64,000 bases of DNA, taken from the NCBI RefSeq assembly GCF_045037415.1, contig NZ_CP173438.1; one strand, written 5' to 3'. This document shows positions 2,083-64,000 of the stretch, one piece after another. Below the pieces are notes generated by a model. It saw only the letters and a program-made list of their open reading frames with translations. It was not told where the DNA came from and searched no databases. How positions within the stretch are numbered: position 1 is the stretch's first letter; each line of letters begins with the position of its first letter. Position numbers and translations under genes: made by a program. The DNA is from Escherichia coli. Lineage in GTDB: Bacteria > Pseudomonadota > Gammaproteobacteria > Enterobacterales > Enterobacteriaceae.

Positions 2083-2141
2083 GGTAATTTACTTTAACGA
2101 GAGGCCGCCTTTTTGTTTTAAGGCGGCACACATTCAACAGA

Positions 2142-2402
2142 TTAAGGTAACTGATTTGACCATTTTGTTGCGCGCCAGTTGTTCTGAACCATAATCTTCT
2201 GAAGTATCTCATCTGAAGGCTCTGCTTCGCCGCTTAGCCATTCTCTTAAAGTTGAACAATTTAGATAAGAGGAGTTCGCACGATAAAAAGATACGATGGC
2301 GTCCTCTGATAACTTCTCAGGAAACTTTTTTGGGTCAGCTTCTTTTAATATTACGCTCATTAAGGCTTCAATTTTTTCTCTGTTCATTTTTTGCGTTCTC
2401 AT
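2142..2402 (-). CDS. hypothetical moron protein (81-86 aa) on opposite strand in AT-rich island; weak resemblance to DinI-family proteins
   Basis: ORF track; alternative ATG at 2387; low GC surroundings; antisense to late operon. Confidence 0.45.
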   Translation of the reverse strand: MRTQKMNREKIEALMSVILKEADPKKFPEKLSEDAIVSFYRANSSYLNCSTLREWLSGEAEPSDEILQKIMVQNNWRATKWSNQLP

Positions 2403-13007: not shown

Positions 13008-13924
13008 TAACATCAACAGTTCAGAATTCGATAGTGAAAACTATTGATATGAGTCTGCTGCCGCCGCCAGCATTCGTTAAAACCCCGTTATTTTCAGATG
13101 TTAAATCTAATCTACTGTCAGAGCTGCAGATATTATATCCACAATTTAACGCACTCCTGGAGTCAGACCCGGCCGTTAAACTGCTGGAAATAGTTGCATA
13201 CAGAGAAATCATTATTACAGCTCGGGTAAATCAGGGGATGCTCGCTGTATTGCTCGCGTTTGCAAAGGGGAGTGACCTCGACCAGATTGGCGCTAATTTT
13301 GACTGCCTGCGGCTGTTGATAACGCCAGCTAATCCCGATGTAATTCCCCCGACTGAGGCTGTTTACGAGAGTGACGACGAGTATCGACACCGAATACAGC
13401 TATCATGGTATGCGCGGAATACTGCCGGCAGTACGAACGCCTATAACTATTTCGCGCTGTCGAGTGATCCCGACGTTCTGTCAGCTCAGGCGTACGGCCC
13501 GCCGGTGACCCAGCCTGGATACGTCGATATGTATGTCTTGTCGCGAACCGGCGACGGCACTCCGCCTCAATCACTACTGAATACAGTGAATGCGGCCCTG
13601 TCTCCTGACGATACTCGACCGCTGACTGATTTCGTGACTGTAAAACCTGCGTCGAACCTGAATTACCGGGTTGAGGCCGTTATCGTAGCCGGGCTCGGAC
13701 CCGACCAGAACGTTTTGCTTAACGGTGCTCAGAGCGATTTGGCGATATATGTGGATACGCAACATAAAATCGGAGCGACGGCAGCTCTGTCAGGAATTTA
13801 CGACGCGATACATCGTGACGGCACTGAACGTGTGATTCTGATATCGCCAACAGAGGATGTGATCGCTGGCGTCGGGCAGGCTCCGTACTGCACAGAAATC
13901 AAACTCAGCGTGCAAATGGGGTAG
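13004..13924 (+). CDS. baseplate assembly protein J
   Basis: 306 aa, size and position match P2 gpJ. Confidence 0.8.
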   Translation: MITSTVQNSIVKTIDMSLLPPPAFVKTPLFSDVKSNLLSELQILYPQFNALLESDPAVKLLEIVAYREIIITARVNQGMLAVLLAFAKGSDLDQIGANFDCLRLLITPANPDVIPPTEAVYESDDEYRHRIQLSWYARNTAGSTNAYNYFALSSDPDVLSAQAYGPPVTQPGYVDMYVLSRTGDGTPPQSLLNTVNAALSPDDTRPLTDFVTVKPASNLNYRVEAVIVAGLGPDQNVLLNGAQSDLAIYVDTQHKIGATAALSGIYDAIHRDGTERVILISPTEDVIAGVGQAPYCTEIKLSVQMG

Positions 13925-60228: not shown

Positions 60229-61542
60229 TTAACTTACTGATTTTAATAAGCCTCTGGTGTCACTTTGGTGACTATGGGGCATCATTGGGACATAATCTGT
60301 CAGCTTCTGATTCAGCATTGCGATCTGTTCTGCATTGCTGTCAGTCATCCATGCTCCGTATACATTGAATACCATCTGGGCACTTGCATGGCCCATCTGG
60401 CTGGCAATGAAGCTTGGGTTTGCTCCGGCAGATAATGACCAGCACGCATAAGTGTGTCGTGACTGGTATGCCTTTCGATGCCTGATCCCTGCACGCTTAA
60501 TGGCTGTTTCCCATGAGTCACCTACAGAATCGACTTTGTAGACAAAACCTACCTGTTCGCTTTTTCTAACCACTTGAGGGTTAAACACGAAAGTACATTC
60601 ATGGTTCACTGAACGTCCATATTCACGTAGTTGCACCTTGATGTTGTACTGCTTACCCAGTCTTGTCATTTCAGCCTGATTTTTCAGGACACTGATAGCG
60701 GGCTGGATAAGGTGCACAACCCTGTTTGTGCTTGCTTCAGTTTTCGGTAGAGTGAACTCACCAAGTTTCGTATAATTGCGCCTGATGGTAATTGTTCCTG
60801 CCTTCAGATCGATATCTTCCCAGGCCAGGGAAACCAGTTCACCGTGACGCATTCCTGTGTACACAGCCAATGACCACAGGTTTTTCGTCTGCTGATGTCG
60901 GCAAGCATCTATCAGGCGAATAAATTCGTCACGAGTTAGCGGATCTGGCTCTGCCCTGGCTCTTTTAAGAGGCTTAATTCCCTGGAAGGGATTTGCTTCT
61001 AAGTAACCGTGATCTGCAGCAAACTGAAACATTCCAGCGATTGTCGTCATGTAATAATTTACAGTAACGACGCTCCGTCCTTTTGCTGCTGCTTTGTTTT
61101 TCGTTGAATTCTGATACCCGGTAAGCAAATCTTTCCTGATATACAGCAATTCCTCTTTGGTTACCGATGACACCAGTCTACTGCCTCCAATTTTCGGAAC
61201 CATCGTTCTTGCAACGGATTCATAGCGATTGAATGCATTTGCAGAGATTTCCATTCGTTTCAGATCCAGCCACTTTTCTTCAAGTTCCTTCACCGTAATT
61301 TCTTTTTTACTTACCCCAAAAGCCTGAAGGTTGGGGGAGTCAGGGAACTGTGCAGCATAATCAAAGCTTCCTGTGCGGATGGCAAAACATACTGATGTCC
61401 GCAGTTCCCCGGCGATCTTCCTGTTCTTGGCAGTGTCAGGGACACCAAGATTTTCCCTGACACGTTTACCTTTAAAATTAAACCAGATGCGTAATGTGCC
61501 GCCGTGGTTTTCGACGCCTGTTGGATATTTGACTTTATCCAT
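60229..61542 (-). CDS. int: phage integrase (tyrosine recombinase), 3' end abuts/overlaps yecE 5' region
   Basis: 437 aa; N-terminal arm-binding-like domain and C-terminal catalytic region with conserved R..H..R..Y context. Confidence 0.85.
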   Translation of the reverse strand: MDKVKYPTGVENHGGTLRIWFNFKGKRVRENLGVPDTAKNRKIAGELRTSVCFAIRTGSFDYAAQFPDSPNLQAFGVSKKEITVKELEEKWLDLKRMEISANAFNRYESVARTMVPKIGGSRLVSSVTKEELLYIRKDLLTGYQNSTKNKAAAKGRSVVTVNYYMTTIAGMFQFAADHGYLEANPFQGIKPLKRARAEPDPLTRDEFIRLIDACRHQQTKNLWSLAVYTGMRHGELVSLAWEDIDLKAGTITIRRNYTKLGEFTLPKTEASTNRVVHLIQPAISVLKNQAEMTRLGKQYNIKVQLREYGRSVNHECTFVFNPQVVRKSEQVGFVYKVDSVGDSWETAIKRAGIRHRKAYQSRHTYACWSLSAGANPSFIASQMGHASAQMVFNVYGAWMTDSNAEQIAMLNQKLTDYVPMMPHSHQSDTRGLLKSVS

Positions 61543-61597
61543 CGATACCTCCAGACGCCCAAGAGCGATACGAGCTTACATATTTCATGATATTAAA

Positions 61598-61834
61598 TCA
61601 CCTGGGTTGTTTGTTTTTCATTGAGGCGACCCAGGCATCTATTGCTTTTCTGTTATACATACATTCACTGGAAGGCTTTGGATTACCGTCTGGTGATACG
61701 TGAATATACTCTCTTCCAACCATCCAGCATTCTTTCCGGGCCCGAAGAATTGTGCCTGGTTTGAGCCCGGTAATTGCGATAAGAACGCTTTCACAAACCC
61801 ATTCATTGGGAGCCAGTTGAATCACATTGCCCAT
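61598..61834 (-). CDS. xis: putative excisionase
   Basis: 78 aa ORF immediately upstream of int. Confidence 0.55.
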   Translation of the reverse strand: MGNVIQLAPNEWVCESVLIAITGLKPGTILRARKECWMVGREYIHVSPDGNPKPSSECMYNRKAIDAWVASMKNKQPR

Positions 61835-61842
61835 GTATTACC

Positions 61843-61989
61843 TCACACAACACTCAGCCCACGGCAGTGGCAACACACTTCAAACATTCGCTTCACAACT
61901 TCACGACAGTAGAAGCCGTCAACATCTCGCGTCAGGTCATAGCGATTGCCGTAACGCTGGTGGACCCATCGTTCAAATGCTTTATTCAT
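61843..61989 (-). CDS. small Cys-rich protein (48 aa, CCHC cluster)
   Basis: Hand-translated; ATG 3 nt after upstream stop; below ORF-track cutoff. Confidence 0.4.
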   Translation of the reverse strand: MNKAFERWVHQRYGNRYDLTRDVDGFYCREVVKRMFEVCCHCRGLSVV

Positions 61990-61992
61990 TCT

Positions 61993-62235
61993 TTACTTCC
62001 TTTTTATGGCTCGTAATTTTTTCAGGTGCTTTTCCTGCTCAGTGTCCGCGAGAATTTTGCGGTACTCCTGGTGGTCAATATGTTCGAACAGGCAGTTTAA
62101 CTCACCAATGCGTACCCGCCCGGATCGTCCGTCCATCCGTCGAAAGAACACTGAGTGCTCAGTGATGCGAGTAATCACCACGGGGTATCCGGCTCTGTCC
62201 GTGTATATCTGACCGCGTTGAATCAAAGCGAACAT
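61993..62235 (-). CDS. hypothetical early protein (80 aa from ATG at 62235)
   Basis: ORF track 61993..62289 with internal ATG closely following upstream stop. Confidence 0.5.
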   Translation of the reverse strand: MFALIQRGQIYTDRAGYPVVITRITEHSVFFRRMDGRSGRVRIGELNCLFEHIDHQEYRKILADTEQEKHLKKLRAIKRK

Positions 62236-62239
62236 GTGG

Positions 62240-62323
62240 TTATCCCCAGCGGCAAATCGAATACACCACCAGCGCCACCGCCATCGCAATTCCTACCGTT
62301 GTTAATGCTTCAGGCCAGGTCAT
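62240..62323 (-). CDS. 27-aa hydrophobic peptide [27 protein letters not shown] (single predicted TM helix)
   Basis: Hand-translated; ATG overlaps upstream stop (ATGA); GGAGG 9 nt upstream. Confidence 0.4.
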
Positions 62324-62664
62324 CGTAAAATATCCTCCACGCTTATCAGTCCGTTCCGCTCCAGATAACTCATCGCCTTATCCGGTAATTTGCAGTCTGG
62401 CTTCGCTTTCCTCAGTTGCCAGGTTAACTGCTTTACCAGCATGGTTAACTCATCGACCAGACGCTGATATCCCACTGGTTTGTATTCATGCAATTTACCG
62501 GCTGGCTCTGCTACCAGCGATACCAGTGCGATTTCCAGAACAGCAATATCCATCTTATATGTGCGGATGATGTCATGGTCGATTGTGCCCGGTATGCACA
62601 GTCTCTGTGCTTCAATAGTCTCCTCTGCGTGAGCTATTAACTGCTCTCTGGTAAAAGTCGTCAT
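62320..62664 (-). CDS. hypothetical early protein (114 aa), divergent member of paralogous family
   Basis: ORF track; shares MTT.T.E start and ..IALVSL.AEP motif with the two paralogues upstream. Confidence 0.6.
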
Positions 62665-62827
62665 GCCGTAGCCCCTTCTTGATATTTTTCAAACCAGAAC
62701 ACAACCGGCTCTGCTTCCAGCGATACCAGCGCAATCCGTGCCAGTTCCATTTGTTCACCACGGGTAAGCCCGTTTTCAAGCGGATTTTTAATGAACAATT
62801 CAATACGTTCTTTGGTAATAGTGGTCA
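62660..62827 (-). CDS. 55-aa protein [44 protein letters not shown]..., stand-alone copy of the N-terminal module of the 136-aa paralogue
   Basis: Hand-translated; AGGAG RBS; ATGA overlap with downstream gene. Confidence 0.5.
62700..62827. repeat. copy 1 of about 125-bp imperfect direct repeat (about 88 percent identical to 63388-63514)
   Basis: Aligned by eye. Confidence 0.7.
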
Positions 62828-62838
62828 TGTGTTACTCC

Positions 62839-63102
62839 TTAACCCGCAGTGCTTTCAACTGATGAGGGGAACAAAATCTTTTCATCAAACCCTGCATTCA
62901 TATCATGGACAGCAACACACCAATCCATTGACGAACGATTATCAAGAGCCTCCATGATTTCATCCATGCGGCGCAGGTCATACAGGTAAATGCTTTTATC
63001 GCCAATGGTGTAAAAACCAATTTTTTTCGGTGATGGGCAGCGATCAAGAACGTCCTGTAATTCGTTCAACCATGCCCGTTCTTTTTTTGTTAAAGTTGCC
63101 AT
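62839..63102 (-). CDS. hypothetical early protein (87 aa from ATG at 63102)
   Basis: ORF track 62839..63213; internal ATG with AAGGAGAGTGA RBS just after upstream stop. Confidence 0.5.
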   Translation of the reverse strand: MATLTKKERAWLNELQDVLDRCPSPKKIGFYTIGDKSIYLYDLRRMDEIMEALDNRSSMDWCVAVHDMNAGFDEKILFPSSVESTAG

Positions 63103-63103
63103 A

Positions 63104-63514
63104 TCACTCTCCTTTCCCATGAAGCATAGCGGCGCGGCAGGCGTTCCAGCCTGTAGCGTATGCAGCCGCTTTGCTGCTGCCTTCAACTGGCGCATCCTGC
63201 CAATACATTTCATCCGGCACTACCGGCGCTGGCAAGGCAGCGTGATAGTAGAGTGGCATAGTTTTGTACAGTGGTTCGCCAGGACTTCCGTCAACCTGAT
63301 TCCATTCTTCAACCCAGGCATCAACAACCGCTTTGCTGGTTGATACATGTTCTTCTGAATCTACATTTTGTCCTGATATACAGAACATAACTGCCTCTGC
63401 TTCCAGCGATGCCAGAGCAATTCGTGCCAGTTCCATTTGTTCGCCACGAGTAAGTCCGTTATCAAGCGGATTTTTAATGAATAATTTGATACGTTCTTTG
63501 GTTATAGCGTTCAT
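63104..63514 (-). CDS. hypothetical early protein (136 aa), N-terminal module [40 protein letters not shown]
   Basis: ORF track 63104..63556; ATG at 63514 with AAGGAGAGTGA RBS. Confidence 0.55.
   Translation of the reverse strand: MNAITKERIKLFIKNPLDNGLTRGEQMELARIALASLEAEAVMFCISGQNVDSEEHVSTSKAVVDAWVEEWNQVDGSPGEPLYKTMPLYYHAALPAPVVPDEMYWQDAPVEGSSKAAAYATGWNACRAAMLHGKGE
63388..63514. repeat. copy 2 of about 125-bp imperfect direct repeat
   Basis: Aligned by eye. Confidence 0.7.
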
Positions 63515-63515
63515 C

Positions 63516-63881
63516 TCACTCTCCTTTGATGCGAATGCCAGTAGCGCGGATTGCATCGATGACTTCAGAAACTTTGTATGCCATTACCGTTTGGTAATCA
63601 TCGTGAAAATCTGTTCGATGAAGCATGCTGCTACGTTCCGGGAGCGATATTTCCCGAGCATCCAGTTCCTTAACGCGCTCCTCCAGTTCGTAGACCCTGC
63701 ATTGTTCTCTATCATCAATCAGATATAACCCAAGACATTCGCTTTCTACCCAACCGCCAAAATCATGATCGTAACGCTCACATGAAAACTCACCGTCACC
63801 GTCCTTTGTTGGAATGGTGTAACTATCTAATGGGCCACCATATGTCGGCACATTTCCCAATGTTGGATGCTCAATCCACAT
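63516..63881 (-). CDS. hypothetical early protein (121 aa)
   Basis: ORF track. Confidence 0.5.
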   Translation of the reverse strand: MWIEHPTLGNVPTYGGPLDSYTIPTKDGDGEFSCERYDHDFGGWVESECLGLYLIDDREQCRVYELEERVKELDAREISLPERSSMLHRTDFHDDYQTVMAYKVSEVIDAIRATGIRIKGE

Positions 63882-64000
63882 GAAAAATGCACGTCCGGTT
63901 ATTGGGCAAATATCTGGCCGCCATTGGTTACGAACAGCCTTGGTTTCGGATAATTCTTCAGCGTGTTGTTTTACTTCCTCAAGCTCAACTCTCAGCTTCC

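Follow-up and report, generated by a model that had tools for sequence, protein, structure and literature searches.

Termination-reinitiation coupling of translation is known at stop and start codons that lie close together or overlap, such as the TGATG of trpE-trpD and ATGA overlaps. The boundary sequences of phage HK620 were reportedly described by Clark, Inwood, Cloutier and Dhillon in 2001, and the modular theory is said to go back to Susskind and Botstein in 1978. The idea that short conserved boundary sequences act as recombination joints is credited to Clark et al. 2001 (for HK620) and Susskind & Botstein 1978 in PMC3029335. Ea22 mosaicism has been published (PMC10834534), and a 2020 paper reported that Ea22 proteins end in (K/R)GE, a '+GE' tail whose significance was given as unknown (PMC7093339). 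Here we analyze a short motif found at two gene junctions of a lambdoid prophage in Escherichia coli, within a window that is the whole 64,000-nucleotide (nt) stretch of contig NZ_CP173438.1 (assembly GCF_045037415.1). The region studied is the part of the leftward early operon (the "exo-xis" region) closest to int. Very probably, the motif serves both as a junction that couples translation and as a boundary sequence of lambdoid mosaics. The observation stands, though its limits were drawn imprecisely, but it is an ordinary one: it combines the tight packing of phage early operons with the known boundary sequences at lambdoid mosaic joints.

The motif, AAGGAGAGTGA(T/G)ATG, is 15 bases long. 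A first-pass annotation had claimed that two junctions share it, and the claim holds well above chance: both copies are exact, AAGGAGAGTGATATG at 63100-63114(-) and AAGGAGAGTGAGATG at 63512-63526(-). When up to two mismatches are allowed, the 64-kb window contains 4 matches against 0.31 expected, a number that no shuffle reached; the other two matches have two mismatches each and are located elsewhere. The features concerned are the following.

63516-64000 in the window, minus strand: 3' part of an Ead/Ea22-like gene (full gene 63516-64331, 271 amino acids, GTG start)
63512-63527, minus strand: junction 2, AAAGGAGAGTGAGATG, made of the K-G-E codons of the Ea22-like gene, TGA at 63516-63518, a 1-nt spacer and the orf136 ATG at 63512-63514
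63104-63514, minus strand: orf136, an intact open reading frame (ORF) of 136 amino acids, phrog_5117
63100-63115, minus strand: junction 1, AAAGGAGAGTGATATG, made of the K-G-E codons of orf136, TGA at 63104-63106, a 1-nt spacer and the orf87 ATG at 63100-63102
62839-63102, minus strand: orf87, a conserved phage protein matching phrog_1714 over its full length (E=1e-50)

In the reading frame of the upstream gene, the motif runs AAA GGA GAG TGA N ATG, so that the upstream proteins end in K-G-E. Its AAGGAG core is the consensus Shine-Dalgarno (SD) sequence; it is contained in the three sense codons preceding the upstream stop, at 6 nt from the downstream ATG. The duplex with the anti-SD is worth -9.1 kcal/mol at both motif junctions, among the strongest of the nine starts of the gene block. 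A ribosome ending the upstream gene would thus halt a single base away from the next start and have a strong SD close behind, and this proximity of stop, start and SD makes it likely that the downstream gene is translated in step with the upstream one. The two junctions show what is expected of a coupled junction, that is, a stop adjoining a start and an SD within the upstream coding sequence. They resemble known termination-reinitiation sites in carrying the SD in the 3' end of the upstream ORF, with 1-nt spacing at these two junctions and ATGA overlaps at two others.

An SD-like element just before an in-frame UGA, with the downstream ORF in the +1 frame, is also what a recoding site could look like. 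Under this explanation a +1 frameshift or bypass at GAG-UGA, aided by the SD as in prfB, would fuse the upstream and downstream proteins, and some PHROG families (phrog_60) do join an Ea22 N-terminus to the ITKERI module found at the start of orf136 in one protein. In the prfB frameshift, the SD lies about 3 nt upstream of a P-site codon that is able to re-pair in the +1 frame. Here, by contrast, the P-site codon GAG cannot re-pair in that frame (AGU), and the SD overlaps the P-site codon instead of preceding it by 3 nt. Each downstream ORF begins with an ATG of its own, ideally spaced from the SD, and unrelated genes follow the same junction. We regard recoding as extremely improbable.

Comparative alignment had been proposed in the first-pass annotation as a check, and it bears the idea of a recurring junction out: the junction family is seen, as the exact 16-mer, in at least 120 viral contigs among the matches listed. 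Among these are contigs that match HK620, HK022 and VT2-Sakai in length. The tail codons were compared in a set of 80 loci retrieved via the Ea22 coiled-coil peptide, in which the 3' end had no part in selection. All of the unique K-G-E-ending genes in this set (44/44) use AAA GGA GAG TGA, with zero synonymous variation; after the TGA comes one base, then ATG in nearly all of them. Other tails in the same set differ in peptide sequence, yet a purine-rich SD still stands 5-10 nt ahead of the following start codon: KGGE-stop is AAAGGAGGTGAGTAATG, KGK-stop is AAGGGGAAGTAGGGATATG, KGEAS-stop is ...GGGGAGGCATCATGA, and KGG-stop and KGGA also occur. Conservation extends upstream of the motif itself and defines two boundary islands in the window.

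63508-63551, minus strand: boundary island at the Ea22 3' end, ..GCT GGC ATT CGC ATC AAA GGA GAG TGA K ATG, nearly invariant
63104-63152, minus strand: second boundary island, in the orf136 tail (..WNACRAAMLHGKGE, then the stop), common to phage proteins with differing bodies

Across the 44 unique sequences, pairwise identity reaches 0.9-1.0 between about -27 and +7, at third codon positions as well, and falls to about 0.3 upstream of -30 and again downstream, which delimits an island of ~35 nt. The same tail codons occur in unrelated proteins: Ea22 C-terminal domains, the orf136 type (...ACRAAML(H/K)GKGE) and a 63-amino-acid protein of NRKAK type. Together with ~20-25 further bases of the upstream tail, the junction forms an island common to unrelated cassettes in many lambdoid phages.

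Part of this picture could arise by convergence only, if junctions had independently evolved a near-consensus SD, a stop and a start, with no common ancestry and no role in recombination. Each of the nine starts of the block has some SD, different SD-bearing tails (KGGE, KGK, KGEAS) are found within the same family, and the two window junctions are dissimilar upstream of a 12-mer. Convergence does not predict that the 12-mer and its spacing should be identical in all those contigs, nor the lack of synonymous variation, nor an island that is invariant at third positions. It is equally at odds with an identical 16-mer that precedes an orf87 of 96-99% identity behind six different upstream genes. 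This explanation is improbable in our judgment.

The K-G-E C-terminus might instead be selected as protein, for example as a recognition or stability tag, the SD-like nucleotides being incidental. In favour of this, (K/R)GE ends every Ea22 protein compared in PMC7093339, and the tail persists in lambda, where no downstream gene adjoins it. Selection on the peptide would not hold GGA, a rare glycine codon, and GAG constant in every one of the 44 genes. Nor would it explain that unrelated small proteins have the tail only if a further gene begins after 1 nt, or that the variants KGGE, KGGA, KGG and KGK change the peptide and keep the purine run. We therefore find a protein-level origin unlikely. 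The invariance of the codons, the SD-keeping variants and the presence of the tail in unrelated proteins together call for an explanation at the nucleotide level, and the '+GE' tail of Ea22 probably arises incidentally, as the translation of the SD and recombination joint that serve the next gene. Papers on Ea22 treat +GE as a protein feature, whereas the data here point to the nucleotides. No paper saying so was found, and the step is a small one that does not amount to a new kind of system. If the '+GE' codons are the SD and joint of the next gene, ea22 deletions or tags would alter downstream gene expression, which is relevant to their design.

The second half of our interpretation, that the motif marks a mosaic boundary, was addressed by listing the genes on either side of it. 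The 51 loci compared show 30 combinations of 11 upstream types with 16 downstream genes, and 11 four-gamete quartets: the genes on the two sides of the junction are reassorted. Copies of orf87 that are 96-99% identical in nucleotide sequence are joined by one and the same 16-mer to at least 6 different upstream tails; in other phages the gene comes straight after Ea22-like genes, whose tails are of at least 5 kinds, the link in every case being a single copy of AAAGGAGAGTGATATG. In the present prophage, orf136 and a 1-nt spacer form a 412-nt cassette with the motif on both sides, lodged between the Ea22-like gene and orf87. The window contains two copies of the motif because the orf136 cassette carries a junction at its own 3' end. 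A second arrangement of this sort is the 63-amino-acid cassette M(AT)NNRKAKILLVRR...AAQNRWKNHLRTKGE-stop (NRKAK type), flanked on both sides by the 16-mer ~220 nt apart (L020 7051-7283, L062 1062-1300, also L085 and L107), so that at least two unrelated cassettes have the motif on both sides. In a viral contig of 38,297 bp, the length of HK620, the motif joins an Ea22-like gene to the 63-amino-acid ORF, and the next gene starts with the MTTITKERI module. A link to HNH homing endonucleases was considered for '...NHLRTKGE' tails and rejected, as these belong to 63-amino-acid proteins that, on inspection, lack an HNH signature.

Ends of blastn high-scoring segment pairs (HSPs) against the unbiased loci cluster at 63508-63516, 63541-63551, 63113-63120, 63148-63152, 62828-62842 and 62318-62324. 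Of the 24 breakpoint clusters, eight are 7 nt or less from a gene end, where 8.7% would be expected (binomial p=7e-4). The junction thus presents the features by which boundary sequences are recognized: a short conserved stretch with non-homologous flanks, multiple combinations of neighbours, and a concentration of breakpoints. Lambdoid boundary sequences as described elsewhere are likewise short and conserved, sit at gene boundaries between non-homologous modules and occur in many left/right combinations; we see no difference in kind from the window junction. We infer from the sequences that homologous recombination at the island is the mechanism, which would swap neighbouring genes.

Two exact copies 412 nt apart also suggest a simpler origin, in which one of the junctions would be the product of a local duplication of the other inside this prophage. 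A genuine repeat does exist nearby.

62695-62840 and 63381-63526, minus strand: 146-nt direct repeat, 86% identity, covering the 5' coding module of orf55 and of orf136 together with the junction upstream
62661-62828, minus strand: orf55, the N-terminal module alone, paralogous to the start of orf136 through the 146-nt repeat

Junction 2 forms the end of this repeat, which encodes a common 34-letter protein stretch at the beginning of orf55 and orf136. The repeat pairs junction 2 with the junction at 62828, not with junction 1. The 90 nt upstream are unrelated: the locus L123, whose upstream 90 nt are identical to those of junction 1, has 0.32 identity with junction 2. Each junction type also occurs alone in other phages with other neighbours. 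These unrelated flanks exclude a local duplication for practical purposes, and we give it very little credence. The earlier description of "duplicated junctions" is right in one particular sense: the copies flank the orf136 cassette and belong to a wide junction family, and they did not arise by local duplication. The motif is not confined to the two junctions either; only two copies are exact, and a related third junction lies at 62808-62841.

Integron cassette arrays offer an analogy, and only that. They share with this locus serial small cassettes, a recurring short bounding sequence and an upstream promoter. They differ in that there is here no attC-type imperfect inverted repeat and no integron integrase; moreover, the conserved element lies within coding sequence, and exchange would presumably proceed by general or phage homologous recombination.

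Several observations weigh against the double role proposed for the motif. We infer translational coupling from the geometry of the junctions. At four junctions, local RNA folding is the same as in shuffled sequence (z -0.5 to +0.6); as folding is no stronger than in shuffles, there is no sign of masked downstream starts, and independent initiation may also occur. In this the locus differs from termination-reinitiation systems: no masking RNA structure is predicted here, and dependence of the downstream genes on upstream translation is putative. The sampled loci are phylogenetically related, so the counts are not counts of independent events. About 20 nt of the island are invariant beyond the SD and are not accounted for by SD function; they could reflect recent spread by recombination, or another cis function. 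In lambda, ea22 carries the same island, GGCATTCGCATCAAAGGAGAGTGAGAT, at 2140-2160 (-) of locus L122 (NC_001416, record ~29840-29860); there the ATG after the island has become ATC, with ea8.5 lying beyond 191 unannotated nt. A coupled gene is therefore not required for the island to persist. Finally, breakpoints inside genes, at a 32-nt linker, are about as many and as strong as those at the junctions.

62502-62533, minus strand: 32-nt linker encoding ..IAL(A/V)SL(E/V)AEP.., in orf114
62705-62736, minus strand: the same linker in orf55
63391-63422, minus strand: the same linker in orf136

Intragenic HSP-end clusters fall at the linker, at 62702-62748 and 63388-63434. The linker would thus act as a second, within-gene class of mosaic breakpoint, reshuffling N- and C-terminal modules. 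The rejected candidates include a start-masking RNA structure, sought as proof of obligatory coupling; the four junctions fold like shuffles.

The lambda region after ea22 looks like the scar of a lost cassette. At lambda's island-adjacent position, six viral loci have a 7-codon mini-ORF (MSRNTGL and a stop), followed by lambda-like sequence.

A stronger claim than ours would be that the island serves an accessory-gene cassette system, located at the 3' end of ea22, as its dedicated cis-element. It is prompted by the synonymous invariance of the island beyond the SD and by the at least two unrelated, doubly flanked cassettes. In one version, the island would be a preferred crossover or cleavage site of phage recombination functions, with ...KGE-stop cassettes stacking in arrays. 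In the other, an invariant hairpin (UCGCAUC / AAAGGA loop / GAGUGA) would present the SD and tune coupled translation. In either version we hold this to be unlikely.

A weak invariant hairpin is predicted at 63516-63540 (-) in the window and in homologous islands, in which UCGCAUC pairs with GAGUGA and AAAGGA is in the loop. Its energy is -3 to -6 kcal/mol when folded alone and -4.2 kcal/mol by alifold, and it would display the SD in the loop. All hairpin positions are invariant, with no covariation.

The two junctions lie within a block of nine minus-strand genes that runs from xis to the Ead/Ea22-like gene, with gene ends matching the RefSeq annotation of an identical genome. The 100% identical 2.5-kb stretch is present in RefSeq genomes; the reference used is L001 (strain THO-003, NZ_AP022525), for which window coordinate = L001 coordinate + 52499. 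The remaining genes of the block, and the integrase beyond it, are these.

62320-62664, minus strand: orf114, whose start overlaps the orf55 stop (ATGA)
62240-62323, minus strand: orf27, a hydrophobic ORF of 27 amino acids, absent from the RefSeq annotation; its start overlaps the orf114 stop (ATGA)
61993-62235, minus strand: DUF4222 gene (RefSeq annotation, Pfam)
61843-61989, minus strand: orf48, phrog_3871 (RefSeq annotation, PHROG profile)
61598-61834, minus strand: excisionase (DUF1233), xis (RefSeq annotation, Pfam and PHROG profiles)
60229-61542, minus strand: integrase (annotation)

From xis upstream, the stop-to-start gaps are 8, 3, 4, -4, -4, 10, 1 and 1 nt. The packing is thus as tight as the first-pass annotation had it, except that its range of 1-8 nt for overlaps and abutments leaves out the 10-nt gap, where the orf55 SD (TAAGGAG) overlaps the orf87 stop and lies 10 nt ahead of the orf55 ATG. 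Three ATGA overlaps had been counted; only two true stop/start overlaps exist, at 62320-62323 and 62661-62664, and a third was not found, the 'ATGA' at 61989 and at 63514 being a start codon followed by A. The overlap at 62320-62323 is itself real only with the unannotated 27-amino-acid ORF. Position 63881, taken as the right limit, is no gene start; it is an internal methionine of the Ea22-like gene, whose frame is open to the window end and continues past it to 64331. The first-pass annotation had also overlooked that the motif encodes the K-G-E tails and that it is a mosaic joint.

SD-like pairing is found before all nine starts, with anti-SD duplexes of -5.5 to -10.6 kcal/mol. A single strand, tiny gaps and an SD before every start fit coupling within one leftward transcription unit. 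A scan found no minus-strand promoter-like sites inside the block, and terminator-like sites were at chance level (3 on both strands against 2.3 expected). Internal promoters or terminators dividing the operon were accordingly rejected, the scan being at or below chance. According to the annotation of the identical genome, the LexA-family repressor region lies outside the window and the operon runs leftward from there. The early-left promoter is also outside the window, and in L001 a PL-like candidate was seen, which is weak and does not exceed chance. Of the proposed tight co-expression from a leftward early promoter, the common strand, the small gaps and the SDs agree with the sequence, and the coupling and the promoter itself are to be read as predictions.

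The block is the counterpart of the exo-xis region in lambda and in Shiga toxin (Stx) phages. Its upstream gene matches Pfam PF13935 with 112.9 bits against a gathering cutoff of 27 (residues 2-130, E=2e-32), and it shares with lambda the Ea22 coiled-coil and the ...GIRIKGE tail. The prophage differs from lambda in that exo, bet and gam are not among the genes annotated in its leftward block, and in that the genes following Ea22 are accessory genes unlike lambda's ea8.5. For the small proteins of the block, NCBIfam gave no name, and the covariance models of Rfam 15 gave no match at E<=1 in 61400-64000. Pieces of the 2.5-kb stretch are found in 2529 of 5426 E. coli genomes, and 80% or more of it at one place in only 76: the region is highly mosaic at the population scale.

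RefSeq mis-describes two features of the block, the intact orf136 being given as two pseudogene fragments and the conserved orf27 being missed. The Prokaryotic Genome Annotation Pipeline (PGAP) splits orf136 into two overlapping partial pseudogenes, a DUF551 N-terminal fragment and another, both in the same frame. Residues 1-134 of orf136 match positions 1-124 of the 125-position phrog_5117 profile. The protein is a chimera, in which the N-terminal module 'MxxITKERIxLFIKNPL..SLEAE' is joined to a different body and tail, and from its sequence orf136 looks like a live chimeric gene rather than a pseudogene. As for orf27, it fills an apparent 84-nt gap between orf114 and the DUF4222 gene, leaving 4 nt downstream. 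A tblastn search matched it to 88 phage records, with identities of 60-80% in 77; in several of the 88 a hypothetical protein is annotated there. One match, at 13106-13186 of Actinobacillus phage vB_Apl-pPE4 (PP818812.1), has 96% identity to the ORF of this E. coli prophage. The record is from Actinobacillus pleuropneumoniae, which is unexpected for the host; it may be an E. coli-type lambdoid phage or have a mislabelled host.

The left end of the prophage occupies 60229-64000 of the window, and its host neighbours are yecE (DUF72), yecN, cmoA and cmoB. The host DUF72 (yecE-like) gene is annotated as starting inside the 3' end of the prophage integrase, with a shared stretch of 19 nt (60229-60247). 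From this overlap, the prophage was apparently inserted in the 5' end of the DUF72 gene and supplies its present start.

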